64,000 bases of DNA, from IMG/VR virus record IMGVR_UViG_3300049048_000052, positions 86,643 to 150,642 of that record. One strand, written 5' to 3'. The notes under the pieces are model-generated. The model saw only the letters and a program-made list of their open reading frames with translations, did no database searches and was not told the origin of the DNA. Position numbers and translations under genes: made by a program. Source of the DNA: a virus. Position 1 is the first letter of the stretch, and every line of letters begins with the position of its first letter. Below, piece after piece: positions 3,891 to 61,435 of this stretch.

Positions 3891-4424
3891 ATGGTAAATA
3901 CTATGGATGCAAATGATATATATGGGGCGCCAGCAATAGCCTCAACCTTTGATCTAAGTCAGATAATAGGGGTATATACCAATATATTCCCTGAGCTTAA
4001 TGTTATTGGTTCATTCAATCAGAGGACCAGGGATAACATTAGAGAGAATAATAGGTCAATAGAGTTCAGGGTAACCCATCAGTTCAGCAATAGCTATGAG
4101 AGGTACAATGATGTCTCATCCTGGCTGATAGCCTCCATGTGGTATAACAGTGAGGCCTTTATGATTATGAGGAACGTAGGAAGGAATGGGGATAACTACC
4201 CTAGCTTCTTTGTGACTGATAGCCAGACCTATCATACTGCCCTATACCATCTATTCAGTCTACTAGAGGTTGATGCTGACTTCTCTGATGAGGCATGGTC
4301 ACCCCTCTCGGGAACCATAACTACGATGCCAGGGGAGCTAACAATGGTAGAGGTGGCCTATGATGATCCTACTTTGATCAAGGCATTAAATCATAGTATT
4401 AGATATGGTCCATTGACTTATTGA
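3891..4424 (+). CDS. hypothetical protein
   Basis: 177-aa ORF. Confidence 0.5.
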   Translation: MVNTMDANDIYGAPAIASTFDLSQIIGVYTNIFPELNVIGSFNQRTRDNIRENNRSIEFRVTHQFSNSYERYNDVSSWLIASMWYNSEAFMIMRNVGRNGDNYPSFFVTDSQTYHTALYHLFSLLEVDADFSDEAWSPLSGTITTMPGELTMVEVAYDDPTLIKALNHSIRYGPLTY

Positions 4425-4454
4425 TTATCAGTATTAAATAAAAGGTATATAAAC

Positions 4455-5300
4455 ATGACGGCCTGGTGTAAGACGGATAAGGGCATTACTGCTTCCTATA
4501 GAGGCAAGATATATAACATATTAAGTACTAATCCTAAATATGGTGAGATCATTGAGCTCATTAAGGCTAAGGAATGGGAGAGTGCTATTGAGTTACTTGA
4601 TGTAGCTCAGACAATCGAAAAGAAATCTGATGGTGCCTTTAGTGTTAGGGATGGTCTAGTGTATGTTAAGGGTGAGGATCGTCCTCTACCCGAGGTGTTA
4701 TCTAAGAGAGTCCTAGACTTCTATGAGGAGGGCCTAGATTATGCACCGTTACTTAAGTTCTGGGGCCATGTTAAGTTGAACCCCAGTAACCGGGCAGTGG
4801 ATAGATTATATGAATGTCTAGAACATAATCATCATCCTATTACTGAGGACGGCAACTTCCTTGCATATAAGAAGGTAAGGCAGAGTCCTGATGGTAACCT
4901 ATATGATATTTATACCTATAGGAATGATAAGGGGACCTTCCTTAATAATGTAGGTCTTACTGTAACTATACAAAGGAATCTAGTTGATGAGAATATCGAC
5001 CAAACATGCTCTTATGGGTTGCATGTGGCTTCTTATGATTATGCTGCTAGAGTTTATGGTTCTGATAGCGATGTGCTCCTAGAGGTCGAGGTTAATCCTA
5101 AGGACGTAGTTGCTATTCCTCGTGACTATAATAACCAAAAGATGAGAGTCTGTGCCTATAAGGTATTAGCTATCAGTGCTGGTTATGAGAGGACTGAGGC
5201 ATACGTTGGGTATGATCAGTACGAGGATGAGGACGAAGAGGAAGCCTATTGGGATGACCATTACAGCTATCTCTATGGGGACTATGATGAAGAATACTAA
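4455..5300 (+). CDS. hypothetical protein with acidic C-terminal tail
   Basis: 281-aa ORF preceded by GGTATATAAAC next to the ATG; C-terminus is a DEDEEEAYWDD...DYDEEY acidic tail. Confidence 0.55.
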   Translation: MTAWCKTDKGITASYRGKIYNILSTNPKYGEIIELIKAKEWESAIELLDVAQTIEKKSDGAFSVRDGLVYVKGEDRPLPEVLSKRVLDFYEEGLDYAPLLKFWGHVKLNPSNRAVDRLYECLEHNHHPITEDGNFLAYKKVRQSPDGNLYDIYTYRNDKGTFLNNVGLTVTIQRNLVDENIDQTCSYGLHVASYDYAARVYGSDSDVLLEVEVNPKDVVAIPRDYNNQKMRVCAYKVLAISAGYERTEAYVGYDQYEDEDEEEAYWDDHYSYLYGDYDEEY

Positions 5301-8910: not shown

Positions 8911-9657
8911 ATGAATAAGCCACTATGGTTACACGCTCTCATAGCCCAGATAACTGATACTAAGAAGAGAGCGGAGGGCATCAAGAAGTCCGTATATCAG
9001 AAGTTACAGAAGGCTACTCTCTTCGTAGCTACACTAAAGGAGTACACCCCATTAGTAGAGGGAGGTATACAGTACACATCTGAGGGTACATCAATCGTAC
9101 CTGAATCAGTACCTCTACTATTGGATGAGTTCAATGAGGCTGTCTCCAAACTATTAAATGAGATGGCTACCCAGGATTGGGGCAATACAAAGGCTAAGGC
9201 CGATGTTATTATTGATGATATAGTTATTGTTAAGGATGCACCTGTAACATTCCTAATGGCGTTACAGAGTCAGCTAATTGATTATAGAACTTTGTTTGAT
9301 CATGTACCCACTCTAAGTCCCGTGGACAAGTGGGAATATAATGCAGGTCAAATGGTATGGAGCACACCAGCTACCATTACTAATAAGGAACAAGTAATTA
9401 AGGAGTGGGTACCTATCTTCCAACCTACAGAGCACCACCCAGGTGAGGCCAAGGAAGTATCTAGGACAAAGCTAGAGGGTACATGGGAGAGCCGTAAGTT
9501 TAGTACTGCACTACTCCCTTCCCACAGGAAAGAATTGCTACAGAGGGTTGATAGACTAATTGAGGCGGTAAAGGTGGCACGTGAGGAGGCCAACCGTATT
9601 CAAGTAGAACCCAAGGATGTAGCTACAAGTATCATTGGGTACCTAATGGGTGCCTGA
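8911..9657 (+). CDS. hypothetical protein
   Basis: 248-aa ORF after a 340-nt non-coding region. Confidence 0.5.
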   Translation: MNKPLWLHALIAQITDTKKRAEGIKKSVYQKLQKATLFVATLKEYTPLVEGGIQYTSEGTSIVPESVPLLLDEFNEAVSKLLNEMATQDWGNTKAKADVIIDDIVIVKDAPVTFLMALQSQLIDYRTLFDHVPTLSPVDKWEYNAGQMVWSTPATITNKEQVIKEWVPIFQPTEHHPGEAKEVSRTKLEGTWESRKFSTALLPSHRKELLQRVDRLIEAVKVAREEANRIQVEPKDVATSIIGYLMGA

Positions 9658-9701
9658 TGGTAAACGGCGTAGGCTAAGGTTAAAGGTGTATAGGTAATAG
9701 T

Positions 9702-9758
9702 GTAGGTTCGAATCCTGCCCTTCCCATATATGGGAAGGTAGTCCAACTGGTAGAGACT
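9702..9758 (+). other. tRNA T-arm plus 3'-acceptor module followed 5 nt later by a complementary 5'-acceptor plus D-arm-like segment
   Basis: GTAGG/TTCGAAT/CCTGC then CCTTCCC A, TATAT, then GGGAAGG TA GTCC AACTGGTAGAGAC. Confidence 0.4.
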
Positions 9759-9862
9759 GTCCAATACACTATATAAGACTGAGCATTAAGTTCAGATTAT
9801 CGCCCTAGACTAAGTCTAAGGACAACAGCTCAGGTCGACTGTCTAGGACAACATTGACCCAC

Positions 9863-9964
9863 GTTGGTTCGAATCCAACCCAGGCCGCTTGGGGGCGACC
9901 CTATATGGGTAGGTAGCTGTCACACTTCTACCCCTTTCTTGGCCTGGTAGACTAGAGGTTAGTC
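9863..9964 (+). other. second T-arm plus 3'-acceptor module with a downstream complementary 5'-acceptor plus D-arm segment
   Basis: GTTGG/TTCGAAT/CCAAC CCAGGCC G ... (53 nt) ... GGCCTGG TA GACT AGAGGTTA AGTC. Confidence 0.4.
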
Positions 9965-10092
9965 AGGTCTTTATTAGATTGATCCTAGACAACTGGAAAT
10001 GAGAATACTGAGATCACTGTTGATGGGGGATTACTAATGCAAGGCATACTGCATGGTAATCCCCTTCCTATTATTAATAAAGGAGAAAGAAG

Positions 10093-10392
10093 ATGGGCGC
10101 ACATAGTACGTTGGACATAAGTAAGTCCGATGCAATTAGTCAGGTTACAAGATGGTTAGAAGAGAAGAAGGATAGGATCGTAAGGGATCCTAATAGTCTA
10201 CTAACTAGGGCGCTCACTAAGTTTGAAGCCGAGAAGGCAAGGAAGTTCCTATTGGATGAGCCGTTAAATGAGGCTGAGTGGGAGGCACTCAAGGACTCCA
10301 TACCTACTCTAAGTAGAGAGGAATTAGAAGTATTACTAGATAGGTTGGAGGAGGACCTGTATAACTATAATGTCATCGAGTGGGAGCATTAG
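10093..10392 (+). CDS. hypothetical protein
   Basis: 99-aa ORF with AAAGGAGAAAGAAG Shine-Dalgarno. Confidence 0.45.
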   Translation: MGAHSTLDISKSDAISQVTRWLEEKKDRIVRDPNSLLTRALTKFEAEKARKFLLDEPLNEAEWEALKDSIPTLSREELEVLLDRLEEDLYNYNVIEWEH

Positions 10393-12041: not shown

Positions 12042-12830
12042 ATGGATCTGGCAGTCAGGATCAAGGAATTCTATGAGTATGCATACCGCACCTTCCTACC
12101 CAGGAGGATGCCAGTCATACTTAGAGTAGATGGTAAGGCATTCCACTCTTATACAAGGGGTATGAATAGACCCTTTGATGAGAGATTGGAAGAAGTAATG
12201 AACCTTGTAGCTATTAAGCTATGTAAGGAAATACAAGGTGCTCAGATAGCCTATGTGCAATCTGATGAGATCAGTATATTAATTCATGGTTATAAGAAGC
12301 TCAATAGTGAGTCATGGTTTGGTAATAATGTACAGAAGATGACCAGTGTTAGTGCTGGTATAGCTAGTGCATGGTTTACCTACCACTCATCTAGGTTAAC
12401 TACTGTATCTGAGGATATAGGTAATACCCAACAGTTTATAGAATCTAAGCTAAAGCCAGCAGTATTTGACTCTAGGGTATTCGTACTCCCTGAATCAGAG
12501 GTATGTAACTACTTCATATGGAGACAGCAGGATGCTACTCGCAATAGTATCTCTATGCTTGCCCAGTCTTTATACTCCCATAAGGAGTTAAATGGGGTTA
12601 CATGTAATCAGATGCAGGAGCTCTGTTTCCAGAAGGGTCATAACTGGAATGATCTACCTATCATTAGAAAGAGGGGTAGATGTATTCGTAAGTTTATTAG
12701 GTATACACCTGTAGCTGGAAGACCTGAGGGTAATACAGTTGCTAGATCCTATTGGGATGTAGACTATGAGACTCCTATCTTTACTGAGAATCGTAACTAT
12801 ATTGAAGATCTATTAAAGACATATGAGTAG
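12042..12830 (+). CDS. Thg1-like protein (tRNA-His guanylyltransferase family, 3'-5' nucleotidyltransferase)
   Basis: N-terminus PVILRVDGKAFHSYTR...AYVQSDEISIL reproduces the Thg1 RVDGxxFH and SDE catalytic signatures with the correct spacing. Confidence 0.7.
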   Translation: MDLAVRIKEFYEYAYRTFLPRRMPVILRVDGKAFHSYTRGMNRPFDERLEEVMNLVAIKLCKEIQGAQIAYVQSDEISILIHGYKKLNSESWFGNNVQKMTSVSAGIASAWFTYHSSRLTTVSEDIGNTQQFIESKLKPAVFDSRVFVLPESEVCNYFIWRQQDATRNSISMLAQSLYSHKELNGVTCNQMQELCFQKGHNWNDLPIIRKRGRCIRKFIRYTPVAGRPEGNTVARSYWDVDYETPIFTENRNYIEDLLKTYE

Positions 12831-14622: not shown

Positions 14623-14695
14623 AGGTAGCTGGTCCAATATAGGAACGGGCTGTCTCGATAAGAGGCTATGCTAGGTTCGAATCCTAGGCTGCCTA
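14623..14695 (+). tRNA. tRNA (anticodon unresolved)
   Basis: Acceptor AGGTAGC pairs with GCTGCCT (one G-U pair); T-arm CTAGG/TTCGAAT/CCTAG; 73 nt. Confidence 0.5.
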
Positions 14696-15134: not shown

Positions 15135-15401
15135 ATACTGATAAAGATAAGGAACAAGAGCAAGAGGCCCAAGAGGAATCCATGGAGTCTGTCCTACAAA
15201 GGATAGAGGCTATTAAGGATGCTCAAGAGAAAGGTCTAGTTCAAGGTTAAAGATTAGGGAGTTAATGATAACTCCCTTATACATGCCGCTGGATATGGTC
15301 AGGGACCTGATCACCCCTTGAGGTTCGATTCCTCACAGTTGGCTTCAGGAGATAATATATATCTCCTATCTAAAGGGTATTAATGAGGGGGCCACCCGAC
15401 C

Positions 15402-15458
15402 CTAGGTTCGAATCCTAGTTACGCCATCCGGCTGCGTAATGGCTGAGTGGCTAAAAGC
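15402..15458 (+). other. third T-arm plus 3'-acceptor module followed by a complementary 5'-acceptor plus class II-like D-arm
   Basis: CTAGG/TTCGAAT/CCTAG TTACGCC A, TCCGGC, then TGCGTAA TG GCT GAGTGGCTAAA AGC. Confidence 0.4.
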
Positions 15459-15543
15459 AGGTAGTAGGAAAATCCTACTCATCGTCGGGAGCCTCCTCTT
15501 CAATACCCTTTCTTATTGATTGTCTTACCTAGTAGAGACAGTA

Positions 15544-16997: not shown

Positions 16998-17382
16998 ATG
17001 TTGCCCACTAGATTACAGATCCTAGATATGTTAATAACTACTAGGAAACATCCGGTTGTAATAAAGGTGAGGGGATATGGTATTGGCAATTAGAAGATTC
17101 CTGTTCCATAACAACGGGGTCGCTGCGGATAGCTACACAGAGGATCAATGTGTAGCTATGAGAAAAGAGCTAAATGATATAGGGGCCGGGTTGCCTATTA
17201 GTACATCAGATAAGGTGGTAGCAACTACCTACCGCAACCTGATGCAAGAGGAAGAGGATGAAGGGTACTGTTATCCTTCATCTAGAGATTACGAAGGTTA
17301 GATAAATAAGTATTGGGGATATCCCCAATACTCTTACTTGCCTGGTATGCACTAAGGTAGTGCGATTAGACCACATATGTTT

Positions 17383-17454
17383 GGGCTCATAGTTCAATGG
17401 ATAGAATGATTCCCTCCTAAGGATTAGATCTAGGTTCGATTCCTAGTGGGCCTG
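17383..17454 (+). tRNA. tRNA (anticodon CCU?, Arg)
   Basis: Acceptor GGGCTCA/TGGGCCT, D-arm GTTC/AATGGATA/GAAT, loop CTCCTAA, T-arm CTAGG/TTCGATT/CCTAG. Confidence 0.55.
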
Positions 17455-17525
17455 CTTTTTATATGGTGGTTTAGTTATAGTGGGTTCGATTCCCACACCA
17501 GGCGTTAGTTAATTAGGGATAATGT

Positions 17526-25475: not shown

Positions 25476-25754
25476 ATGAAACCAGGACCTAAGAAGGGTA
25501 GTAGTCAGAGTAAATCCCATGTTGCCAAGAGGGCCAAGGCTGTAAAAGGTAAGGCCAATGGTATGTTTAAGGATGGAAGACGTTCCTATCGTTCCATAGC
25601 GGGAGCTAGGAATAGCGATGGAAAAGTTGTGCATCACAAGGACGGTGATAGGACCAATAATTCAAGATCTAATCTAAAGGTCCTGAATGATGGTCCTAGT
25701 AGGCCAGGTAGGAAGACAACTAGTAAGCATGAAAGACTTACTAGACGTAAGTAG
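25476..25754 (+). CDS. small basic HNH (HNH_3-type) endonuclease-like protein
   Basis: 92 aa, K/R-rich, with VVHHKDGDRTNNSRSNLKVL (the HH.DG...NN...NL pattern of HNH_3-type homing endonucleases); ends exactly where a tRNA-like gene begins. Confidence 0.5.
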   Translation: MKPGPKKGSSQSKSHVAKRAKAVKGKANGMFKDGRRSYRSIAGARNSDGKVVHHKDGDRTNNSRSNLKVLNDGPSRPGRKTTSKHERLTRRK

Positions 25755-25924
25755 CCAGTGTAGCTTAAAAGGTAAAGCGTACCCCTCTCAGGGTATACCG
25801 AAAGGGTCCATAGGTAATAGGTGTAGTTGCAAGATTCTGTGAGAGTTATAAACTCCGTATTCGGCAGAGTCCCAGACTGCACAACTATACCTATGGATAT
25901 GAGGGTTCGATCCCCTTCACTGGC
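25754..25924 (+). tRNA. tRNA-like gene (anticodon-arm loop CTCTCA, Glu-like) with about 100-nt insertion after the anticodon arm
   Basis: 5' part 25754..25795: acceptor GCCAGTG, D-arm GCTT/AAAAGGTA/AAGC, stem TACCC/GGGTA. 3' part 25901..25924: T-arm GAGGG/TTCGATC/CCCTT, acceptor CACTGGC pairing 7/7. Confidence 0.35.
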
Positions 25925-26012
25925 GTTGACTAAGATAGAACAATGAGACATAAAGAAATGCCCCTCTATGTAAGACACATAAGAGGGGGTCCAATTAACT
26001 TAGGAGTAAATA

Positions 26013-33787: not shown

Positions 33788-33847
33788 ATCTTAGGGCGTA
33801 AGCCCTTATTCATTCCTCAGTGGCGCAGTGGATAGCGCACCCGCCTT

Positions 33848-34537
33848 TAGGATAGGAGCACTTCTAGGGGAAACCCTTAAAGTGAATGTGGTTAAATTCA
33901 GGGAAGACTAAGTAGATTATGATCAAACTCCCAATGACAGTTAGGACATAGAGGTACTAAGTTGTCTACAGAGTTAATGTCGTTAACTAAGGTTTCATGT
34001 GGAAAACTAGAGATGGCCTTTCTATGGGCTATTTCAACATGTTTGTTATACCCACAGTTAATACAACAAGACCAGTCGAGTTTTGCTGCTACAGCTCTAG
34101 CCCTTGCTCTAACTAAAGCATAGGCTGAGGACCTGTGATGTTTATTGTACATGGCTTCTTCTAAAGTGACATTTAGATTTAGTCCCTTACGATGAGATCC
34201 AAAGCAGGATTTACAGTAGGTTCTGGAGTTACTTATAGGAGTGGTGCATACCAAGCATTTATTCTCGGGTTTCCTCTTGGGGAAATTACGATTATTATGT
34301 GTAGCAGCACAACTCTTACTACAGAACTTAGGGTTAGTTGTTTCCTTATTACAGTTGAGACAATTCATAGTTTATATGTTAATCCTGAGCCAAGCTATTC
34401 GAAAGCCCTATTATATCATGGGTTCGAATAGAAGGTGCAGAGACTTAACAGCCACCACCTAAGGTCATAAGACTATGGTGAAGATAAAGTCCAGACTACA
34501 AACACTCTTGAGTGGCAGCTAAAGCTGTAGTAGGAGG
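33848..34537 (+). mobile_element. group I-like intron in the tRNA anticodon loop (between nt 34 and 35)
   Basis: TTCAGGGAAGACTAAG (33897..33912) and AAGATAAAGTCCAGACTACAA (34481..34501) resemble the group I R and S (P7) elements; terminal G before the 3' exon; about 210 nt of non-ORF sequence. Confidence 0.55.
33898..34368 (-). CDS. HNH homing endonuclease, encoded antisense inside the tRNA intron
   Basis: 156 aa; CINCGYNKHVEIAH...NLVPLCPNCH is a classic HNH motif, plus N-terminal CxxC pairs. Confidence 0.7.
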   Translation of the reverse strand: MNCLNCNKETTNPKFCSKSCAATHNNRNFPKRKPENKCLVCTTPISNSRTYCKSCFGSHRKGLNLNVTLEEAMYNKHHRSSAYALVRARARAVAAKLDWSCCINCGYNKHVEIAHRKAISSFPHETLVNDINSVDNLVPLCPNCHWEFDHNLLSLP

Positions 34538-34595
34538 CTAAGCGGTCGGTCGCAGGTTCGAATCCTGCCTGGGGAGTTTTAGTTAGGAGAAGATC

Positions 34596-37686: not shown

Positions 37687-37760
37687 GTCCCTGTGGTCCA
37701 ACTGGTAGAGGTAACGGACTTAAAATCCGTGTGTTGTGGGTTCGAATCCCACCAGGGACA
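37687..37760 (+). tRNA. tRNA (anticodon UAA; Leu by anticodon, but short variable arm)
   Basis: Acceptor GTCCCTG/CAGGGAC 7/7, anticodon stem-loop ACGGA CTTAAAA TCCGT, T-arm GTGGG/TTCGAAT/CCCAC. Confidence 0.6.
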
Positions 37761-37763
37761 TTT

Positions 37764-37837
37764 GCCGCAGTAGCCCAATTGGGTAGAGGCTGTAGGTTGA
37801 GGGCTTACATGTTACAGGTTCAAATCCTGTCTGCGGT
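37764..37837 (+). tRNA. tRNA (anticodon GAG?)
   Basis: Acceptor GCCGCAG/CTGCGGT, loop TTGAGGG between GTAGG and CTTAC, T-arm ACAGG/TTCAAAT/CCTGT. Confidence 0.55.
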
Positions 37838-42178: not shown

Positions 42179-42733
42179 ATGTTAATAGAGAGGCTCCTAA
42201 TGGAGGGGGCGGATGTATCTATATATTACATAGATAACCTTGATACGGCAATGTTAATGGATGAGTTAACAAAAGCTGTAGAATGGGATACTATGGGTGG
42301 TACTAGAAGGAAGATGGCATGGTTTGGAAGGGGAGAGTATACCTATCGGGATAGACTTCATAAACCTCAGGATATGCCATTGGTCGTTAAGATAGCTAAG
42401 GCACCAGTAGAACGAGTGACTGGCCACACCTACAATGGTTGTCTAGCTAATTGTTATGAGAATGGGAGGATAGGGGTTAACTGGCATTCAGATGATGAGT
42501 CTATACCAGGTTCACCTATAGCCATACTATCTCTAGGTGCAACCCGTACCTTTAGGATGATGCATAAAGTATTAGGTATCAGCAGGGAGTGGAGACTGGC
42601 AGCAGGTACTGTACTTGTCATGTCTGGTCCTACTCAAGAGAACTGGATGCATTGCATTCCTAAAGAGGGAGAAGTTAAAGAGGCTCGTATCAGTCTTACA
42701 TACAGACAAACTAAGTTGACCTCCGTAGATTGA
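42179..42733 (+). CDS. AlkB-like 2OG-Fe(II) dioxygenase (nucleic-acid demethylase family)
   Basis: NWHSDDE (HxD), SLGATRTF, WMHCIP (distal His) and RISLTYRQ (RxSxTxR) match the AlkB signature in order and spacing. Confidence 0.7.
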   Translation: MLIERLLMEGADVSIYYIDNLDTAMLMDELTKAVEWDTMGGTRRKMAWFGRGEYTYRDRLHKPQDMPLVVKIAKAPVERVTGHTYNGCLANCYENGRIGVNWHSDDESIPGSPIAILSLGATRTFRMMHKVLGISREWRLAAGTVLVMSGPTQENWMHCIPKEGEVKEARISLTYRQTKLTSVD

Positions 42734-43311: not shown

Positions 43312-43857
43312 TTAACTCATTGGAGTTAGTTGGTGTATTAGTTTATAAGCGTTCTTAACTAGATCTCTAGAGAGCATCTTACCACCAGATATCAATTTTA
43401 TAATTGGGTTCTTGCGTGAGTGGTCTAACTGAAATCTAGCTTGAGGATATAAGTCCAGGAAGGATGTGGCAGTATCTTTATTAGAGGCAGCTATTTCTAT
43501 CCTATAAGTCTTAACTTTATAGACTTGTACTAAAAGTTGCTTTATCAGATCTATTAAAGTAGGATCCTGGTTGCAGAAGTAAACATGATTTGTTTTATCT
43601 GTATGCCAGCCCTCACATAAATAGGCCGTATGGGCAGCAATGGAAAGAGGTGTTAGGAGTAAATCATCTGTAGGGGAGATATAGTTCTTCCTAGCTAGAA
43701 AGTTATACTCTGAGGCAGATCTCATTGGTATATGGTACTTCCTTAAGTAAGACCTAATAGTCTTATGGTTACAGGCTAGTAACTGACCTATCTGATAGGG
43801 ATTAAGTTCCTGAGTCAGGTATAGATCCTCAAGTACCTCTTTATTAATTAACTTCAT
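43312..43857 (-). CDS. intron-encoded protein, antisense (HTH plus LAGLIDADG-like, putative homing endonuclease)
   Basis: 181 aa inside the second tRNA intron; N-terminal helix-turn-helix-like segment and AYLCEGWHTDK, loosely resembling a single LAGLIDADG motif. Confidence 0.5.
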   Translation of the reverse strand: MKLINKEVLEDLYLTQELNPYQIGQLLACNHKTIRSYLRKYHIPMRSASEYNFLARKNYISPTDDLLLTPLSIAAHTAYLCEGWHTDKTNHVYFCNQDPTLIDLIKQLLVQVYKVKTYRIEIAASNKDTATSFLDLYPQARFQLDHSRKNPIIKLISGGKMLSRDLVKNAYKLIHQLTPMS

Positions 43858-44111
43858 AATCCTGAGCCTTCATGTAGAAATACATGTTGTGAACGAAGCT
43901 ATATGCGGGAAACGCTTAAAGCCTACAACACTATATGTCTACCAAGATATAAGTAACAGTTTGTAGGATGTAACAATAGCCAATCCGCAGGGAAGATACC
44001 TAGGTATCCCCTCAGAGACTAAACGCTTTGCACCTTAACGTAGAGACGAAGGTGATGATATAGTCCAGACTACAACAGCTTACGCTGGCCTATGAAAGTA
44101 GGAGTAGTAAG
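43314..44111 (+). mobile_element. group I-like intron in the tRNA-Leu anticodon loop (between nt 34 and 35)
   Basis: TCAGAGACTAAACGC (44012..44026) resembles R; GATGATATAGTCCAGACTACAACAGC (44054..44079) resembles S; terminal G; near-identical S region to the first intron. Confidence 0.55.
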
Positions 44112-44266
44112 AGGAACCTGTGCCGCAAGGCGTGAGAGTTCGAATCTCTCCTCCCCCATTTACAGTAGTGAGCACACGGTATGATGTAGGGTTCCCCCTA
44201 CTTGTACTAAGGCTAATACCTTTGCTATATTCACTACTGTAAACATATTGATTGTTTCTAATAATT

Positions 44267-45666: not shown

Positions 45667-45898
45667 TTGTCAGTTTACCTGTCCTGACGTTGTGAAAAGA
45701 TAGGTGTAGGTCATAGGCCTAACTAGCAAGAATTGAGTTCGAATCTCAACAGGTCCATTTCGAGGGCCTGACTTGGTAATCGATTGTTAGCATGAGGAAC
45801 TATGACTGAAGGTGTGTACAACCAAAGTACAGAACAACAAGTGCAACCAATAACATTGTACCCTTCTCAAGGGTAAGTTCTATAGTAGTGTAATCTAC

Positions 45899-46663
45899 TC
45901 AGGCGTTTAGTATACTAAACGCCTGCTCTTTTTTACGCATACAGTAGGGACCACCTAAGTTATATAACCTAAATATAAAAGTCTTAAGGATTTTACCTTG
46001 AAAGGAGAAACCGTACTGATTATTCCAGTTGGGATTCTTACTTTGCAAGTCCCTCATATGTACATTAAGGGATATATCTAGTAGTTTGTTGAGCCTAGAG
46101 GCTAGAGTATACATAAAAGACTTTGAGCATCCATAGGCTGTAAGTCTACGGGAGGACCAACACCCGTCAGAGTCTAGATATCCTCTAATGAAATCTAACT
46201 CGTAGACGCTGTCTATAAGAGGCTCAGGGTAAATCATAGTCTTGGACTTATTACTTTCTAACTTTAGGATAGTAGTTAGATCTCTATGTAGACTAGTGGA
46301 ACATATAGCGAGCTGAAGACAGTTAGAAGCTATATTCCTTATTTTATAATCGGTATTGAGGTTAGATTGTATCTGTTCTAGAATATCCCTGTCCGAGGTA
46401 GTAAATACTATCTGACATCCATTTCTATGTAAGTGACCATCCCCATACAATACACCTAACATCCAAGCTTTAAAGGTGTCCATAGGGAACAATTTATAGT
46501 TCTTAAGCTTAGATAATGGCTTATAGGACATTGCCCCGGAGCTCTGCAGGACTTTGTATATACAATAAGAGGATAGCCCTAATTTAGAACTAATATTTGT
46601 AACAGACTGACCCTCCTTATACATAGTTATAATAGGCGTTGGGTTAATATGAGTAGATTTCAT
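45899..46663 (-). CDS. LAGLIDADG homing endonuclease (two-motif type)
   Basis: WMLGVLYGDGHL and FIRGYLDSDGCW are the two LAGLIDADG motifs; N-terminal HTH-like segment. Confidence 0.7.
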   Translation of the reverse strand: MKSTHINPTPIITMYKEGQSVTNISSKLGLSSYCIYKVLQSSGAMSYKPLSKLKNYKLFPMDTFKAWMLGVLYGDGHLHRNGCQIVFTTSDRDILEQIQSNLNTDYKIRNIASNCLQLAICSTSLHRDLTTILKLESNKSKTMIYPEPLIDSVYELDFIRGYLDSDGCWSSRRLTAYGCSKSFMYTLASRLNKLLDISLNVHMRDLQSKNPNWNNQYGFSFQGKILKTFIFRLYNLGGPYCMRKKEQAFSILNA

Positions 46664-48105: not shown

Positions 48106-48419
48106 TTTATATGTGCCTATCTTATTCAGTCGGCATATGTAACTATATAAATATCTCCATCAAACTGATAGAGTCATAGAGCCTATATGGTCTCTGACTA
48201 AGAGCTGATACGGATGGAATATTGGGGGATAGGTACTCCCGATGAGGGCCCCAGCTCTCAACACAAATATCAGCTCTCCTAGCAACTAACTGGCTTATGC
48301 TAACCCTTAATCAGGTAATCATATATTGGTTCAACTCCAATAGTTGCTTTTCCCAGTCGCATAACTTGCGTTCCCAACTGGGATTCTTAGCAATGGTTGG
48401 CTTAGTCCAATCATTTCTT

Positions 48420-48492
48420 GAGGCTGTCGTCTAAAATGGTAGGACTCCCCAAGTTAGTGGGGCAGATGTAGGTTCAAATCCTACCGGCTTCA
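48420..48492 (+). tRNA. tRNA with non-canonical anticodon loop
   Basis: Acceptor GAGGCTG/CGGCTTC, D-arm GTCT/AAAATGGTA/GGAC, stem CCCCA/TGGGG enclosing a 6-nt loop AGTTAG (or 4-bp stem plus 8-nt loop), T-arm GTAGG/TTCAAAT/CCTAC. Confidence 0.45.
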
Positions 48493-48497
48493 TTTAT

Positions 48498-48569
48498 GCA
48501 GTGTTGGTCTAATGGATAAGACGTCTCCAAACTAAGGAGTTAATGTAGGTTCGATTCCTGCTAACTGCG
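48498..48569 (+). tRNA. tRNA (anticodon unresolved)
   Basis: D-arm GTCT/AATGGATA/AGAC, T-arm GTAGG/TTCGATT/CCTGC, acceptor 5/7 paired. Confidence 0.45.
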
Positions 48570-53616: not shown

Positions 53617-55104
53617 ATGGAAGTGGATAGAGTTAGTTACAGACAATACAGTCCTGCACTGAGAAGATTAAACCTCAGGGATGGTAAATACTATCTGGAC
53701 TATGGGTATGATGATATAGAAGTAAAGCTGCAGCCCTTATCTGAGTTAGGTAAGAAGCTACTGGGTGATAATACTTCTAGAGTTATAGATCGTAGATTAC
53801 TCAATAAGTATGACTTTGATGATGGGCACTGGAGGATCAACGGTAGATTCTGTAAGACTCCTGTGGTACCAGTCTATCTAGACTCGTTACTGAATAACTC
53901 TCACCCTCTAATGACCTTGGGTGATGATGTGGCAGGTATTGTAGAGCTAGGGGAGAAGCTCTTAGCTGACTTTCAGCCCCCTCAGATCAATAATGAGGGC
54001 TACACTAAGATACTTACTCAGGGTACACATGATAGATCAGGTCACTTCTACCCTCGTCTGACTCAGGTTACAATCAATGGCAAGGGGGGAATAGATGATA
54101 AGACTGAGGAACTCTACCGTCTTATCAGTAGTTACTTGGAGATCCTTGATGTCTCTGGAGTGGCAGTTAGGGATAGTGCTATCTACACATCCGTAGTCCA
54201 TCAGAAACTTAAGGAGGCTAAGGTCACCATAAGAAACGCTAGGGATGAGCATGCTGGAGGTGGTCGCCCTGATATCCTGTTTGCGGATACGCTAAGTGTT
54301 CCCAAGCTTACGGAGGAAGAGGCAGCAAAGCTAATCATGAACGCACGTAGAGAGAATAGGTTGAGAGGTTACATAACTGATAAACCTACACTCTCTGAGT
54401 TGGAAGATAACACTGAGATGCTAGCTAAGTTCCAGGAAGCTACTAAGTCTATTAAGGGCTTAGTTATTAGCTATCTCCGTAAGCGTGATCCCATTGTATT
54501 CACCGCAGGTAGTAACTTCGGGGTTTCACCTGAGGCTTGGAATATGGATCTTGAGGAGAAGGATAGAATGGGACCCCTAACCGCTATCATAGATCATGAG
54601 GGTAATATAGGTTGGGGTAGCCCTCATAAAGAGGGTAACCGTATGATCTCCAACAATGGTCCTATTGTTCACTATATGGGCCCTAGCTGGTGTGTTAGAT
54701 TCCATTATGTGAATGATGAGGGTGTTACCATCGATGTGCTTCAGGATAATGAGATATTCTGCGTCACAGGTCAGATGTATGCAGATGCTATTAGACCTTA
54801 CCGGCCAGACCTGCTAGAGTTATGGCAACCAGATCCTGAGGCTATCTACTTTGTATGTAGCTACTGGTGCCAAAGAAGTGGGGCCTTTGCTAAGCATAAC
54901 GGTATCCTGGACTTCTATAATGTCTTCCGTATGCGTTGGACATTGGCAGAATGGATTACATATTCTCTAGTGCCTAAGTGTGTAAACATGGGTATTAACA
55001 TACCTGGTTACAATGAGAAAGCCATGGTTGATGGACAGACTCAGTCCGCCAGACTTGCAGCTATCAAGGATTATCTAACTAAGGCTAATGCCCTTAAAAG
55101 TTAA
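53617..55104 (+). CDS. hypothetical protein (first gene of the E1-like operon)
   Basis: 495 aa; motif upstream; 12-nt gap to the next gene. Confidence 0.55.
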   Translation: MEVDRVSYRQYSPALRRLNLRDGKYYLDYGYDDIEVKLQPLSELGKKLLGDNTSRVIDRRLLNKYDFDDGHWRINGRFCKTPVVPVYLDSLLNNSHPLMTLGDDVAGIVELGEKLLADFQPPQINNEGYTKILTQGTHDRSGHFYPRLTQVTINGKGGIDDKTEELYRLISSYLEILDVSGVAVRDSAIYTSVVHQKLKEAKVTIRNARDEHAGGGRPDILFADTLSVPKLTEEEAAKLIMNARRENRLRGYITDKPTLSELEDNTEMLAKFQEATKSIKGLVISYLRKRDPIVFTAGSNFGVSPEAWNMDLEEKDRMGPLTAIIDHEGNIGWGSPHKEGNRMISNNGPIVHYMGPSWCVRFHYVNDEGVTIDVLQDNEIFCVTGQMYADAIRPYRPDLLELWQPDPEAIYFVCSYWCQRSGAFAKHNGILDFYNVFRMRWTLAEWITYSLVPKCVNMGINIPGYNEKAMVDGQTQSARLAAIKDYLTKANALKS

Positions 55105-55116
55105 CTAGGAAATAGA

Positions 55117-55821
55117 ATGAATCTAATATTAGTTGGGGCTGGGCAATTGGGCTCAGCCTTTATCTTGGAATTGCTTAAACGGATATCGGCTACAGGTTTC
55201 ACTGCTATCACTATACATATCTATGATGATGATATCGTAGAGGATAGGAATACCCATGTACAGTATTTCACCCCCAGGGATCGAGAGAAGCCCAAGGCTG
55301 TGGTTATGGCTGACCTGGCTGCAGAGTATGGTATAAAGGCCATCGCCCATGTTGAGCGCTTTGCCTTCCCAGATCTACAAGCTATGGAGAACGTGGTAGT
55401 GGTTGATGCTGTAGACAATGTCAGCACCAGGTATGCTCTGTGGAACTATGCGGTAACACAGAATGTACCCCTGATGACTATGGGTAATAGCCTGAAGGGT
55501 AATGGCTTTGTCACATGGACCTGTGCTGCCTTTGATCACAACACCTGGGGCCTAGGTGCAGGTAGCTACACTGCAATCATGAATGCAATCGAGAAAGAAA
55601 AGGAACCTGAAGAGAAGGTACCCCCTTGTGAACTAACTAAGTATAGAGGTCTAGCCCTTAATACTGCGTTGGCCGCATGTGAGGCATTCCTTATCTATTG
55701 GGGTCAGGATGTCATGATTAGAATAGACCCTGAGGTATATCAAGCTGGCTTCGTCACTGAGTGGCGTATCAAGCCCGAGGGTTATGAGTTGGTTCACATT
55801 AGTTATATGGAAGGTAAGTAG
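55117..55821 (+). CDS. ThiF/MoeB (E1-like) adenylyltransferase family protein
   Basis: LVGAGQLGSAF Rossmann GxGxxG followed by IHIYDDDIVEDRNTHVQYF (matches the ThiF D.D.Ve.sNl.RQ block); C-terminal GLALNTALAACEAFLIYWG resembles the ThiF C-terminal motif. Confidence 0.6.
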   Translation: MNLILVGAGQLGSAFILELLKRISATGFTAITIHIYDDDIVEDRNTHVQYFTPRDREKPKAVVMADLAAEYGIKAIAHVERFAFPDLQAMENVVVVDAVDNVSTRYALWNYAVTQNVPLMTMGNSLKGNGFVTWTCAAFDHNTWGLGAGSYTAIMNAIEKEKEPEEKVPPCELTKYRGLALNTALAACEAFLIYWGQDVMIRIDPEVYQAGFVTEWRIKPEGYELVHISYMEGK

Positions 55822-57156
55822 ATGGTTTATTATCAAGCAGCAGCAAGTCTAACTCCTAAACTCTATGTAGAGGTTGTAGGTGGTATCAATTGGCATATCA
55901 CATCAGCCACTCAGTACCTTATCAATATTGTTAAGGAGCATATGGATTGCTTCGAGGGTATTGCTGATGGGGTAAAGTATGTTAAGGCCTTGATCCCGCC
56001 AGAAAGAGCGGCCTACACATCATCAACACCACAGGTCCTTACTTGTGGTCTAGTGGCAACCTCAGCCTACATGAAACACAATCTGGGGATGGAAACAGAT
56101 AACCATGATGAGTACTGGTACAAGACTCATCCTCTATGTGTTGCATCTGGTTTACCTCAGCAACATACGCTGAGTGTTATCCATCATCTGGTCAACCCTT
56201 ATGGCCTGGGTATCTCTAAGGTATTCCATCGACGTGGAGTATCTATGAGCCCTGATGCTATTAAGTGGATGACTTATCTACCTCCTAATCCTATGGGCTA
56301 TGGTAATCGTACTACTAGCAATAAGGAATATGCGGAGCTATGTGGCTTTGATCCTAAAGTTGTAGAGTCGGAGTACTCTACGGAGTTCGTGGATAAGCCT
56401 AAGGGTCCTGTTATCCTGTTCAATGCAGTGGCAGCTACTACATCCTTTGCTAGTGGAGGGGGCCACGCTAGTTATGCAGGTCCTAGAGCTAAATTCCATA
56501 GTTGGGAGATGGCCATCCGACTTGATAGACTGGAGAGGATCAACTATGCAGTTGAACCTGAGATCGTTGAGGTTGAGCCTAAGCTAAATCAAGTCCTAGA
56601 TGTATGGAAGTGCTTGACCAAGGATGGTGCAACTCTTGAGAGCAAGAAGCCTCAGGGTACTACCTTTGTTGTGCCTCCTATGCAGAAGAGTCTATTGCCT
56701 CTATTACCCTCTAATAATAGTCTTATTATCAGTAAGGGAGAGTTTGAGGACTTCAAGAGATATAATCCTAACCGGATTACGGATGATGACTATAAGGAAG
56801 TATTGAAGCATCCTGTAAATAAGGAGAGGGTAGAAAGCTTCCTTAGTATGTTGATGAATGAAGTCGATAAACTAGGTGAGACATCTGACATTCTGGTGGC
56901 GGCGGGTGGTGTTAAACTAAAGGATCTATCTCAGAAGATAGGCGCTGTCCAATGTATCACAGACTTGAAGAATAAGTTATGTGCTATAGCCAAGGGTGTT
57001 ACTGAGCTTACCTTATCAGATATCATCTATTTCAACCGGCAGTTGGTCGAGGATAAGACCTATGATATTATCTGGGCACTTGGTGACGAGATGCTAGATA
57101 ACATGTTGGATGAATGGATTCTGAACCTGTATGGTGTTAACGACTATACTAAATGA
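55822..57156 (+). CDS. hypothetical protein (third gene of the E1-like operon)
   Basis: 444 aa; its ATG immediately follows the E1-like stop. Confidence 0.55.
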   Translation: MVYYQAAASLTPKLYVEVVGGINWHITSATQYLINIVKEHMDCFEGIADGVKYVKALIPPERAAYTSSTPQVLTCGLVATSAYMKHNLGMETDNHDEYWYKTHPLCVASGLPQQHTLSVIHHLVNPYGLGISKVFHRRGVSMSPDAIKWMTYLPPNPMGYGNRTTSNKEYAELCGFDPKVVESEYSTEFVDKPKGPVILFNAVAATTSFASGGGHASYAGPRAKFHSWEMAIRLDRLERINYAVEPEIVEVEPKLNQVLDVWKCLTKDGATLESKKPQGTTFVVPPMQKSLLPLLPSNNSLIISKGEFEDFKRYNPNRITDDDYKEVLKHPVNKERVESFLSMLMNEVDKLGETSDILVAAGGVKLKDLSQKIGAVQCITDLKNKLCAIAKGVTELTLSDIIYFNRQLVEDKTYDIIWALGDEMLDNMLDEWILNLYGVNDYTK

Positions 57157-60316: not shown

Positions 60317-61435
60317 ATGGACAGTGAAATAGTAAGCAAGAGGACAATATTGTTAGGCCTTGGGGGTAGTCATTCCTATGGTCTAAATGTAGAAGGTTCT
60401 GATATAGATGGTAAGGGTATATGTGTAGGGCTAAAGGAGCATTACCTAGGCTTCACTACATTTGAACAGAAGGACGCAGGTTGGGATATAAGTAAGACGT
60501 TATGGAAGGATCATCCTATTAAGATAGGTGAGGACCTAGTTGTATATGAACTACGTAAGTACCTGCAGTTGGCTGCGGATGCTAATCCTAATATACTAGA
60601 ACTCCTATGGTTGAAACCAGAGCAGTATCTATTACAGACAGAGGTAGGTGCTGAGCTGATAAAGCATAGGCAACTGTTTATGACTAGTAAGTGTAAATGG
60701 ACCTTTAGTGGTTATGCCCATAGCCAATTAAAGAAGATACAGGCTCACCGTAAGTGGTTATTGGATCCACCGGATAGGAGACCTGAGCCACAGGACTTTG
60801 GTCTTGGTCTGGGTAATAAAGATCCTATGACCAAGGAACAACTACATGCCTTCTATGAGTTTCTATATATCCTGGTTAGAGATGCTATCGAATATGCTCA
60901 ACCAGCTGAGGACTTATATAACATATTAATTGCTCGTATAGATTACAAGGGTCTATTCAAACAACATCCACTATCTATAGGGGTACTGCCCTATGTACAA
61001 TCCTTAACTAGATCCTCTGATGACTTTATAAGTCTACTGCATGCTAGTCAGGAGTATAGAGGAGCTCTGACCCGTTGGGATGCTTATCAGAATTGGAAGC
61101 TTAATCGTAACAAGAAGAGGGCAGCTACTGAGGCCGCTATTGGTTATGACAGCAAACATGGTATGCATCTAGTAAGACTGTTGTCTATGGGTATTGAGAT
61201 CCTAGAGACAGGGGAGCTTATAGTGGATAGAGGCATAGCTGGGGATAGAGATGATCTTATGGCCATACGTAACTGCGAGTGGCCCTATGAGAAGCTAATG
61301 GACTATGTTAGTCTCTTAGAGCAAAGAGTAGAGGATGCGTTTAAGCAAACTAGACTTCCTAGATCCTGTGACCGAACTAAGGTCAATGAGTTGTGTATTG
61401 AGTTAGTTGAGATAATGGGTTGGTATGACTATTAG
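60317..61435 (+). CDS. Pol-beta-superfamily nucleotidyltransferase
   Basis: LGLGGSHSYGLNVEGSDIDGKGI is the hG[GS]x9-13[DE]h[DE]h nucleotidyltransferase signature; 372 aa. Confidence 0.6.
   Translation: MDSEIVSKRTILLGLGGSHSYGLNVEGSDIDGKGICVGLKEHYLGFTTFEQKDAGWDISKTLWKDHPIKIGEDLVVYELRKYLQLAADANPNILELLWLKPEQYLLQTEVGAELIKHRQLFMTSKCKWTFSGYAHSQLKKIQAHRKWLLDPPDRRPEPQDFGLGLGNKDPMTKEQLHAFYEFLYILVRDAIEYAQPAEDLYNILIARIDYKGLFKQHPLSIGVLPYVQSLTRSSDDFISLLHASQEYRGALTRWDAYQNWKLNRNKKRAATEAAIGYDSKHGMHLVRLLSMGIEILETGELIVDRGIAGDRDDLMAIRNCEWPYEKLMDYVSLLEQRVEDAFKQTRLPRSCDRTKVNELCIELVEIMGWYDY

Follow-up and report, generated by a model that had tools for sequence, protein, structure and literature searches.

The region 9646-10011 of the window (the whole 64,000-nt stretch of DNA analysed here, from a 252-kb phage) probably encodes one member, about 370 nt long, of a widespread phage non-coding RNA, in which two permuted tRNA-like domains stand in tandem, the protein DUF7873 is the partner and the product is a processed tRNA mimic. 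The family is apparently undescribed and has so far gone unannotated; a literature search (DUF7873, permuted tRNA or Y RNA in phage, tRNA-like elements in jumbo phage) returned no description of the RNA. The elements at 9702-9964 are not decoding tRNAs.

Anatomy of the tandem permuted modules

The RNA follows a DUF7873 gene, and the stretch 9702-9964 at its centre is intergenic. Its parts are these:

8911-9657, plus strand: DUF7873 gene, 248 amino acids (Pfam PF25283, E 1.2e-59)
9646-9812, plus strand: module 1 (A) with its flanks, the first permuted tRNA-like domain, whose 5' segment overlaps the DUF7873 stop codon
9685-9701, plus strand: module 1 closing stem, 5' strand GGTGTATAGGTAATAGT (from MFE folds)
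9702-9718, plus strand: module 1 T-arm, GTAGG-TTCGAAT-CCTGC (read from the sequence)
9719-9725, plus strand: module 1 acceptor 3' strand CCTTCCC, with the discriminator A at 9726
9726-9731, plus strand: module 1 acceptor-closing loop ATATAT (6 nt), a putative intervening segment
9732-9738, plus strand: module 1 acceptor 5' strand GGGAAGG, followed by U8 and A9 at 9739-9740
9741-9757, plus strand: module 1 D-arm GTCCAACTGGTAGAGAC
9758-9770, plus strand: module 1 closing stem, 3' strand TGTCCAATACACT (from MFE folds)
9793-9809, plus strand: conserved linker motif CAGATTATCGCCCTAGA (family consensus AGAUUAUCGCUCUAGA)
9817-10011, plus strand: module 2 (B) with its flanks, the second permuted tRNA-like domain
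9829-9832, plus strand: module 2 P1 5' strand CTCA, pairing with TGAG at 10000-10003
9834-9838, plus strand: module 2 conserved loop GUCGA (AUCGA in the family)
9841-9848, plus strand: module 2 P2 5' strand GTCTAGGA, with the P2 3' strand TCCTAGAC at 9983-9990
9856-9859, plus strand: module 2 P3 (an anticodon-stem-like helix) 5' strand GACC, pairing with GGTC at 9966-9969
9863-9879, plus strand: module 2 T-arm, GTTGG-TTCGAAT-CCAAC (read from the sequence)
9880-9886, plus strand: module 2 acceptor 3' strand CCAGGCC
9887-9940, plus strand: module 2 intervening segment, 54 nt with two internal hairpins, beginning GCUU
9941-9947, plus strand: module 2 acceptor 5' strand GGCCTGG, followed by U8 and A9
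9950-9964, plus strand: module 2 D-arm GACTAGAGGTTAGTC (GACT AGAGGTT AGTC)
9970-9982, plus strand: module 2 conserved loop UUUAUUAGAUUGA (family ..AAAYUGA)
Between the P2 and P1 3' strands, plus strand: module 2 loop AACUGGAAA (UUAAACG in the family)
10025-10064, plus strand: strong hairpin (fold -26 kcal/mol) with UUCCUAUUAUU after it, which may terminate the DUF7873-RNA unit

Each domain runs from a closing stem through a short variable region, the T-arm, a 7-bp acceptor helix with a variable loop, U8-N9 and the D-arm to the other side of the closing stem, and the two T-arms (starting at 9702 and 9863) are 161 nt apart. Reading the sequence confirmed a preliminary description of this region as two canonical T-arms, with a 7-bp acceptor hairpin and a D-arm downstream of each; the complementarity is exact, as it had said, and the spacers are 6 and 54 nt long, against the 5 and 53 nt that it gave. 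The D-arm of module 1 is close to those of the phage's own tRNA-Leu genes (tRNA-Leu at 37687). The GCCC of the linker motif and the GGGU at 9648-9651 are able to pair with each other. In the window's module 2 the UUAAACG motif departs from the family form and reads AACUGGAAA. The hairpin at 10025-10064 was not flagged by a simple terminator scan, and simple promoter and terminator scans were uninformative.

In these tRNA-like folds the 3' part precedes the 5' part, and to this extent the earlier idea of permuted or split tRNA genes describes the topology correctly; as decoding tRNA genes the elements fail, having no anticodon arm. Standard tRNA prediction, proposed at the time as a check, called no tRNA at 9702-9964 (ARAGORN; Rfam at the gathering score). 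That no complete anticodon arm can be reconstructed under the permuted model also holds good: no anticodon loop is conserved, and a 4-5-bp stem at the anticodon-stem position leads instead to extended, conserved helices with internal loops. Strict T-arm matches number 24 in the window, every one of them on the plus strand and none on the minus strand. Several other T-arms in the window, which had passed for orphans, do have upstream 5' halves, in intron-split or nested tRNAs.

Association with DUF7873 and conservation among phages

The DUF7873 family is large (2693 clusters at 50% identity). The protein has a near-neutral pI and no recognisable RNA-binding fold, and gave no PHROG, NCBIfam, PDB sequence or fold match. 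A single-protein search of IMG/VR with the window's DUF7873 retrieved no relatives; homologues about 30% identical each precede two permuted modules in four phage loci (L006, L007, L009 and L010), and the combination of DUF7873 with two permuted modules is present in nearly all of the 80 IMG/VR phage loci examined, at a T-arm to T-arm spacing of mostly 143-177 nt. The window has the same cassette layout, with the RNA directly 3' of DUF7873 on the same strand and the modules 161 nt apart. One locus (L035) is an exception, carrying the RNA on the strand opposite DUF7873. Across 80+ related loci, 117 of the 165 T-arms lying within 650 nt 3' of DUF7873 have a 7/7 complement within 40 nt, compared with only 18/272 of the T-arms elsewhere in the same loci. 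This enrichment, together with the confinement of all strict T-arms of the window to the plus strand, shows that the inverted-half pattern is not chance.

The cassette ranges over phages of Actinobacteria, Proteobacteria and cyanobacteria, and includes the cultured phages GodonK (Gordonia), phiRSL1 (Ralstonia), FBKp24 (Klebsiella) and K479 (Vibrio), in which the RNA is unannotated or mis-called 'tRNA-Sup'. The carrier regions are those of gp204 in GodonK, ORF270 in phiRSL1 and gp048 in FBKp24. The RNA is located inside phage tRNA arrays. A Pfam census of neighbours (145 ORFs of other loci) found no consistently linked third gene that would hint at a pathway. For the window itself, megablast of 15 kb against GenBank phages gave no match, and an exact-word search of IMG/VR with the T-arm plus acceptor returned ordinary tRNAs only. 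The sole other copy of this phage in Logan is identical, so the phage provides no variation of its own.

Two covariance models built with the window excluded recover the RNA over their full lengths. The module 1 model (R2, from 13 other phages) matches 9646-9812 with 72.9 bits (E 6.9e-19, model positions 1-177), and the module 2 model (R1, from 43 other phages) matches 9817-10011 with 50.8 bits (E 7.5e-10, model positions 1-152). Full-length R1 matches with E <1e-10 occur just 3' of DUF7873 in about 75 of 86 loci, many of these not in the seed. The models also cross-match real tandem tRNAs weakly, at 48459-48536 and at 37736-37790, the latter being an R2 match to tandem tRNA-Leu genes.

The modules were aligned one by one, as a whole-RNA MAFFT/RNAalifold alignment of both proved too gappy. 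Among 44 module 2 sequences, 89% of cells are paired, versus 37-47% with the partner columns shifted. The filter demanded pairing of the T-arm and acceptor helices, which is therefore 100% by construction in the alignments and does not count as independent evidence; the unselected helices of module 2 are paired in 91% (P2), 95% (D-stem), 78% (P1) and 69% (P3) of cells, with many double changes. Acceptor sequences vary across the family while their complementarity is kept. The outer structure of module 1 shows little covariation, and its fold is only partly resolved. A covariation between the G of AUCGA and the C of UUAAACG, considered as a candidate, was absent on inspection of the alignment. 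Breakage of tRNA genes by mobile elements, another of the origins first suggested, is contradicted by these comparisons: well over 80 phage loci keep the arrangement next to a single protein family, and compensatory changes accompany it.

The modules retain tRNA-like tertiary (elbow) positions, namely U8 (in 123/123 family modules), G10, A14, G18G19, A21, G53, T54, T55, C56, A58 and C61. Their acceptor loops, from 4 to >100 nt long, start N-C-Y-A: C occupies position 74 in 83-94% of modules, and a pyrimidine stands at position 75 of 48/48 module 2 copies, versus 53% in ordinary tRNA genes. A complete N73-CCA is encoded in 58 of 145 modules (against 1.6% by chance), even where the phage's own tRNA genes are without CCA; the window's two modules do not encode it, reading A-UAU in module 1 and G-CUU in module 2. 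An eighth acceptor pair could form no more often than chance predicts, and the helix therefore ends after 7 bp; base -1 is U only at roughly the rate seen in ordinary tRNA genes. These N-C-Y-A starts, on loops that close a stem of strictly 7 bp, suggest processing by RNase P and CCA addition into a split tRNA mimic. The preliminary description had raised processing hairpins formed with the 3' acceptor strand; the acceptor strands do pair as a hairpin, and a role for RNase P is possible.

Two further permuted elements in the window

The same pattern had been reported at two more places, and both recurrences are real, the acceptor pairing 6/7 at 15402-15458 and 7/7, with one G-U, at 45733-45770. 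They do not make up one kind with the tandem modules. The four examples represent at least three different things: the DUF7873-associated RNA (two modules), a permuted tmRNA and a separate element, module C.

15372-15511, plus strand: module C, third permuted tRNA-like element (fold z = -5.5), with a 29-nt closing stem
15402-15418: module C T-arm
15419-15439: module C acceptor hairpin, paired 6/7
15442-15458: module C D-arm
15460-15483: module C extra hairpin
45684-45920, plus strand: permuted (two-piece type) tmRNA gene (ARAGORN tmRNA*, tag ATNNIVPFSRVSSIVV)
45733-45749: tmRNA T-arm
45750-45756: tmRNA acceptor strand CAGGTCC, followed by a 7-nt spacer
45764-45770: tmRNA acceptor strand GGGCCTG, with G3:U70
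45843-45893: tmRNA tag ORF, followed by a terminator hairpin

In modules 1, 2 and C and at 45733-45770 alike, an acceptor piece comes first, then an intervening segment and then the 5' acceptor strand. Module C is not adjacent to DUF7873 and is matched by R1 in its core only (24.4 bits); Rfam gave no match for it, and single-protein searches of IMG/VR found no relatives of the ORFs that flank it. The element at 45684-45920 is probably a cyanobacterial-type permuted tmRNA, going by its Rfam scores (cyano_tmRNA, 43.1 bits, E 1.5e-10; tmRNA_permuted, 45.0 bits versus a gathering score of 47) and its anatomy.

Alternative explanations and a model for the RNA

The only Rfam similarity of the tandem modules is to YrlA (RF02553), at 26.8 bits (E 0.0015) for module 1 and 37.9 bits (E 7.8e-7) for module 2 of the L009 locus, both over the full model length. 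The two RNAs share a permuted order of variable region, T-arm, acceptor stem-loop and D-arm (PMC4201824), closed by a stem from the RNA's two sides, as well as conserved elbow nucleotides, and the layout, with two RNAs behind a protein gene, parallels rsr-yrlB-yrlA. The RNA could then be a YrlA-type Y RNA whose stem binds a Ro60/Rsr protein supplied by the host or by another part of the 252-kb phage genome, its tRNA-like domain tethering or protecting the RNP as in Salmonella, Mycobacterium and cluster C mycobacteriophages, and DUF7873 would be a mere neighbour; RNA-repair genes do lie nearby (Thg1-like and RlaP genes in the window, RtcB in L006, Pnkp/Rnl in L010). We consider this unlikely. 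The scores of 26.8-37.9 bits are far below the gathering score of 69, the window's module 2 has no match, and no TROVE protein was found among 30 window ORFs scanned (29 of them at least 180 aa) or 145 neighbour ORFs elsewhere; with no Ro gene found and scores below threshold, membership of YrlA fails. The invariant neighbour is DUF7873, whereas YrlA genes are defined by rsr within 4 kb on the same strand. The exact putative Ro-contact motif GNCGAAN0-1G is not present: module 1 has GGCUAAGG, with one mismatch, and the 5' AUCGA(C/G) that family module 2 carries in an internal loop (GUCGAC in the window) is loosely like GNCGAA. The RNA differs from YrlA, too, in joining two tRNA-like domains within one ~370-nt molecule, in its stem motifs (AUCGA/UUAAACG and AUUAUCGCUC), in often encoding N-C-Y-A and in acceptor loops that reach at least 100 nt. 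Permuted tmRNA (RF04321 and RF01851; alpha- and beta-proteobacteria, cyanobacteria) has the gene order of the modules as well (T-arm, 3' acceptor with CCA, variable intervening segment, 5' acceptor), together with a long helix in the place of the anticodon arm and, presumably, a product held by base pairing after tRNA-type processing. N-CCA is often encoded in the family, and a probable permuted tmRNA is present in the same phage. The modules might thus be coding-less tmRNA-like domains that are charged, bind SmpB/EF-Tu and interfere with or replace host trans-translation; the tmRNA database holds 72 'permuted, no CDS' forms, and the CDS-less form of phage DS6A is reported to inhibit tmRNA (PMC11915505). 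That the modules work in this way is very unlikely. Both have real D-stems, unlike tmRNA, and neither has pseudoknots; G3:U70 is absent (G3-C70 in module 1, C3-G70 in module 2, and none consistent in the family) and so is a tag reading frame, for which reasons tmRNA membership fails. No tmRNA model matches 9550-10150 even at E up to 10, and the partner gene is DUF7873, not smpB.

The position of the RNA could also speak for a cis-acting 3'-UTR element, with tRNA-like folds serving as RNase P/RNase Z punctuation or exonuclease blocks that set and stabilise the 3' end of the DUF7873 mRNA: the RNA lies just 3' of DUF7873 on the same strand (L035 excepted), starts at or overlaps its stop codon in the window (where the R2 match begins at 9646) and is followed by a terminator-like hairpin. 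Two modules and about 150 nt of conserved helices and motifs (AUCGA, UUAAACG, AUUAUCGCUC) go far beyond the needs of punctuation, and the authors of the FBKp24 annotation place a promoter between the DUF7873 gene and the RNA, which makes a purely cis-acting role quite unlikely in our estimate. We give hardly any credence to true circularly permuted or split decoding tRNA genes, the main idea of the preliminary description. The 3' half does precede the 5' half with perfect acceptor complementarity, and some module 1 copies of other phages have an extra hairpin at the anticodon-arm place; the loops of these hairpins measure 3-9 nt with no conserved 7-nt anticodon loop, the window is without them, the closing stems continue into conserved non-tRNA helices, and neither ARAGORN nor Rfam tRNA matches the locus. 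Maturation of permuted tRNAs requires an archaeal or eukaryotic splicing endonuclease, and bacteria are not known to have one. Decayed tandem tRNA genes, giving chance 'dimeric tRNA' look-alikes or pseudogenes, might be expected in a phage rich in tRNA genes and odd tRNA-likes, whose real tandem tRNAs weakly cross-match our models. This reading is contradicted by the comparative data, the arrangement and its compensatory changes being kept beside DUF7873 in >80 distant loci, and its probability is close to nil.

Permuted nuclear tRNA genes are known from Cyanidioschyzon merolae and some green algae, where the 3' half lies upstream and a short linker joins the acceptor strands; circularisation via splicing endonuclease and ligase restores the full cloverleaf with its anticodon. 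The window RNA differs in being without an anticodon arm and in having a bacterial host. Other tRNA mimics include the 3' tRNA-like structures of plant viruses, mascRNA and the stable 'species 1/2' RNAs of phage T4, which lie within the phage tRNA cluster and have no known function. All are tRNA-like folds seen by tRNA-processing enzymes, viral or at transcript 3' ends. None is known to have a circularly permuted order, to occur in tandem or to be associated with a gene of the DUF7873 type.

In the reading that we favour, a tandem tRNA mimic with DUF7873 as its partner, the RNA would be transcribed with the DUF7873 mRNA or just after it. The variable acceptor 'loops' would be intervening segments, as in permuted tmRNA genes, starting with discriminator-C-Y-A and closing the 7-bp helix. 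RNase P would cleave 5' of each acceptor and the ends would be finished by 3' trimming or CCA addition, leaving an RNA of three base-paired pieces that has two tRNA-like CCA ends, by analogy with two-piece tmRNA and with M. smegmatis YrlA, which has a 7-bp acceptor, is cleaved by RNase P and has CCA added (PMC4201824). DUF7873 would act as a dedicated protein partner, binding the conserved internal loops, and by mimicking tRNA the complex may contribute to host takeover, repair or counter-defence linked to tRNA or translation. Both the processing step and the DUF7873 RNP are parts that we infer. More tentatively, DUF7873 and its RNA may constitute a new class of phage RNP, in which host tRNA maturation enzymes make a three-piece double mimic; the phage would use the complex to manipulate translation, the metabolism of tRNA or defences directed at tRNA. 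In that case module 1, which resembles tRNA-Leu and has A73, might for that reason even be aminoacylated without an anticodon.

Families of tRNA-mimicking non-coding RNA are few (mainly tmRNA, YrlA Y RNAs and viral TLS), and those known have each uncovered a separate aspect of RNA quality control. The RNA described here is set apart by being common, by a dedicated protein of unknown fold and by having been missed in annotation or mis-called a suppressor tRNA. A function-less Pfam family, DUF7873, gains a testable RNA partner and annotators a new RNA model, with the culturable jumbo phages phiRSL1 and FBKp24 among the carriers. Why phages with many tRNA genes should also encode split look-alikes of tRNA is a question that the finding raises. 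If the more tentative reading is true, DUF7873 and its RNA would be a third protein/tRNA-mimic system, beside Ro-Y RNA and SmpB-tmRNA.

A tandem of permuted tRNA-like modules beside DUF7873

Twice within positions 9702–9964, a T-arm and 3′ acceptor strand precede the complementary 5′ acceptor strand and D-arm, the inverted order read in the preliminary description. We refer to these as module A (module 1) and module B (module 2):

9702–9718 (+), module A T-arm
9719–9725 (+), module A 3′ acceptor CCTTCCC, then a 6-nt spacer
9732–9738 (+), module A 5′ acceptor GGGAAGG, followed by UA at positions 8–9
9741–9757 (+), module A D-arm
9863–9879 (+), module B T-arm
9880–9886 (+), module B 3′ acceptor CCAGGCC, then a 54-nt spacer
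9941–9947 (+), module B 5′ acceptor GGCCTGG, followed by UA at positions 8–9
9950–9964 (+), module B D-arm

The acceptor strands are 7/7 complements as first described, with spacers one nucleotide longer than the 5 and 53 nt then given. The site is intergenic (9658–10092), with + strand ORFs on both sides. Standard tRNA prediction, proposed at the outset as a check, calls no tRNA at 9702–9964, either by ARAGORN (which reports 13 tRNAs plus a permuted tmRNA across the window) or by Rfam at gathering score. The reported recurrence also holds: at 15402 and 45733, as at 9702 and 9863, the T-arm is followed by the complement of its own acceptor. The window belongs to a metagenomic contig of 251,780 bp, of which a Logan assembly contains an identical copy; GenBank phages include no close relative.

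The gene just upstream (8911–9657) encodes a Pfam DUF7873 protein (E 1e-59). A word-indexed protein search found few homologues, at ~30% identity, each followed by a non-coding gap; in four related phage loci (L006, L007, L009 and L010) this gap holds two T-arm/acceptor-hairpin/D-arm modules with acceptor sequences quite unlike those of the window. An alignment-based scan of IMG/VR extended the set to 80 loci, nearly all with a first permuted module ~60 to 100 nt after the gene and a second ~145–175 nt after the first; ordinary tRNAs elsewhere in these loci have normal order. Of the T-arms within 650 nt 3′ of DUF7873, 117/165 have their 7/7 complement no more than 40 nt away, versus 18/272 elsewhere. 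At 50% identity, a profile search gave 2,693 clusters of DUF7873, and nearly all of these are single-domain proteins of 240–255 aa. The protein is labelled 'hypothetical protein' in GenBank phages of Vibrio, Gordonia, Rhizobium, Klebsiella, Serratia, Arthrobacter, Pseudanabaena, Ralstonia, Rhodococcus and Microcoleus.

We built covariance models with the window left out, R1 from module 2 (43 sequences) and R2 from module 1 plus flanks (13 sequences); both are short-calibrated, making E-values rough. R1 matches 9817–10011 over its full length even with the 54-nt insert (50.8 bits, rough E 7.5e-10), and R2 matches 9646–9812 end to end (72.9 bits, rough E 6.9e-19), beginning 12 nt ahead of the DUF7873 stop codon. 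Full-length R1 matches (E < 1e-10) lie just 3′ of the gene in ~75/86 loci, many outside the seed. Tandem ordinary tRNAs (48459–48536 and 37736–37790) give weak, core-only cross-matches, an artefact of which the YrlA authors warned (PMC4201824). One locus, L035, has its module 2 match (4362–4516, −) on the strand opposite DUF7873; L047 (4966–5120) and L057 (2433–2602) have further, weaker full-length module-2-like matches downstream, which may be extra copies.

Phages phiRSL1 and FBKp24 (Klebsiella phage vB_KpM_FBKp24, L097, MW394391) carry the gene followed by two permuted cores; GodonK has no annotation over the 500 nt downstream. The GenBank 'tRNA-OTHER / tRNA-Sup-TTA' of FBKp24 (2182–2261) overlaps module 2 (R1 match 2211–2336) and is probably a mis-call. 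That record also places a promoter between the gene and module 1. The RNA is coupled to DUF7873, and this near-invariant gene pairing makes the protein a putative binding partner. Structure prediction (pLDDT 88) gives the protein four long helices plus a long-stranded sheet, and no match to it was informative.

No third gene is consistently linked to the cassette, with RtcB (L006) and a Pnkp/Rnl1-type ligase (L010) nearby in other phages. At 12042–12830, 2.4 kb further downstream than the RNA, the window encodes a Thg1-like 3′-5′ nucleotidyltransferase, and elsewhere two more genes of RNA repair or modification type: an RlaP-family nucleotidyltransferase (60317–61435) and an AlkB-like 2OG-Fe(II) oxygenase (42179–42733). 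No TROVE/Ro protein was found among 30 window ORFs scanned (29 of at least 180 aa); the analysis covered 64 kb of the 252-kb phage, which may carry a Ro or SmpB gene further away. Elsewhere (53617–57156), two large ORFs of 495 and 444 aa, neither matched in Pfam or PHROG, flank a ThiF-family gene (55117–55821); a class II ribonucleotide reductase follows closely downstream.

Structure and covariation

The module 2 alignment (44 phages, acceptor loops trimmed to six bases) contains six helices.

Pairing of helices in the module 2 alignment
P1: 78% of cells paired; outside the detection filter
P2: 91%; outside the filter
P3 (anticodon-stem-like): 69%; outside the filter
D-stem: 95%; outside the filter
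T-stem: 100%; demanded by the filter, not independent
Acceptor: 100%; demanded by the filter, not independent

Because only modules with perfect pairing in the T-stem and acceptor passed detection, these two helices are not independent evidence; the four unselected helices hold many double substitutions. Overall, 89% of cells pair, versus 37–47% with 3′ partners slid one to three columns. Unpaired conserved motifs comprise AUC(G/A)A and UUAAACG, which face each other across the P1/P2 internal loop, and a YUGA that follows P3. Conservation extends to the nucleotides of the tRNA elbow (U8, G10, A14, G18G19, A21, G53, T54, T55, C56, A58 and C61).

The D-arm of module 1 is tRNA-Leu-like (UG/UA GCNNAAnUGGUAGANGC) and in some phages precedes an extra hairpin. 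A conserved linker motif, AGAUUAUCGCUCUAGA, is able to pair with a G(G/A)GCGCAC-like segment on the 5′ side; the module's outer structure is only partly resolved. Modules A and B, and a third permuted element away from DUF7873 (module C, 15372–15511), share a fold in which a closing stem encloses T-arm, acceptor hairpin and D-arm. The RNA that follows DUF7873 is structured and conserved, and its permuted tRNA-like domains number two.

Other T-arms in the window

A strict T-arm pattern has 24 matches, every one on the + strand and ten of them outside called tRNAs. Allowing for introns or nesting makes some of these ten ordinary: the 5′ half belonging to the T-arm at 34552 lies at 33814, across a group I intron, and pairs with the acceptor strand that follows this T-arm. 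Two tRNA genes (33814–34575 and 43845–44157) are apparently interrupted in this way, with Rfam Intron_gpI at 33837–34513 and 43845–44086; a search over 420 nt gave no perfect 5′ acceptor for the second. A T-arm at 17480–17496 with ACCAGGC (17497–17503) has its 5′ acceptor GCCTGGT and D-arm at 17340–17365, giving an outer tRNA-like gene (17340–17503) whose halves lie either side of a complete tRNA-Arg(cct) (17383–17455). The segments adjoining the inner tRNA can pair (ACCACAUAU / AUAUGGUGGU), and its excision would therefore leave a split tRNA-like pair. An Rfam tRNA match at 25754–25925 (38.7 bits, ~100-nt insert) has no ARAGORN call. Colinear tRNA-like genes at 14623–14695 and 48281–48348, with good acceptor and T-arms and abnormal D or anticodon regions, are missed by ARAGORN and Rfam alike.

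Module C matches R1 in its core only (15393–15473, 24.4 bits). As no relatives were found for the ORFs on either side, it is left unassigned. Directly upstream (15285–15368) lie a mini tRNA-like fold lacking a D-arm (acceptor, one hairpin, T-arm), weakly matching the mascRNA model, and a hairpin, GGAGATAATATATATCTCC.

The element at 45733 is, by its sequence features, a permuted tmRNA gene: ARAGORN calls tmRNA* with tag ATNNIVPFSRVSSIVV, Rfam gives cyano_tmRNA at E 1.5e-10 and tmRNA_permuted at 45.0 bits (threshold 47), and its acceptor contains G3:U70. The tag resembles those of cyanobacteria, which makes a cyanobacterial host probable.

Processing and relation to known RNAs

The acceptor helix is 7 bp, a possible eighth pair occurring only at chance frequency, and its 'loop' is hypervariable in sequence and length (4 to over 100 nt), yet starts with discriminator-C-Y-A; this combination suggests processing at the acceptor helices. 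Exact N-CCA occurs in 58/145 modules, versus 1.6% by chance, and 48/48 copies of module 2 have a pyrimidine at position 75, versus 53% in ordinary tRNA genes. Phages whose own tRNA genes are without CCA show the N-C-Y-A signal too; at N73, A predominates in module 1 and U in module 2. Ordinary tRNA genes in related loci have C at position 74 in 201/223 cases and rarely encode full CCA. RNase P cleavage and 3′-end finishing would yield three base-paired pieces with two tRNA-like ends. The same acceptor helix and loop properties characterise the intervening segment in permuted tmRNA genes (PMC11915505) and Mycobacterium smegmatis YrlA, an RNA with an acceptor of 7 bp that RNase P cleaves and to which CCA is added (PMC4201824).

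The permuted tRNA gene of the preliminary description was rejected: the RNA at 9646–10011 is no permuted decoding tRNA. The described topology of YrlA Y RNAs matches the fold of modules A, B and C, and the only Rfam similarity within 9550–10150 is of module A to YrlA, full-length and sub-threshold (26.8 bits, E 0.0015, gathering score 69). On that score, among other tests, YrlA membership failed, as did membership of the two-piece tmRNAs. The RNA probably works like YrlA and the tRNA domain of two-piece tmRNA. Rfam 15 has no family covering it, and in a literature search that took in few subscription journals we found no paper on DUF7873 or such an RNA; it is apparently new. We rate the RNA as belonging among the permuted tRNA-mimic ncRNAs, with tandem architecture, a putative new protein partner and wide phage distribution rated as its new features.
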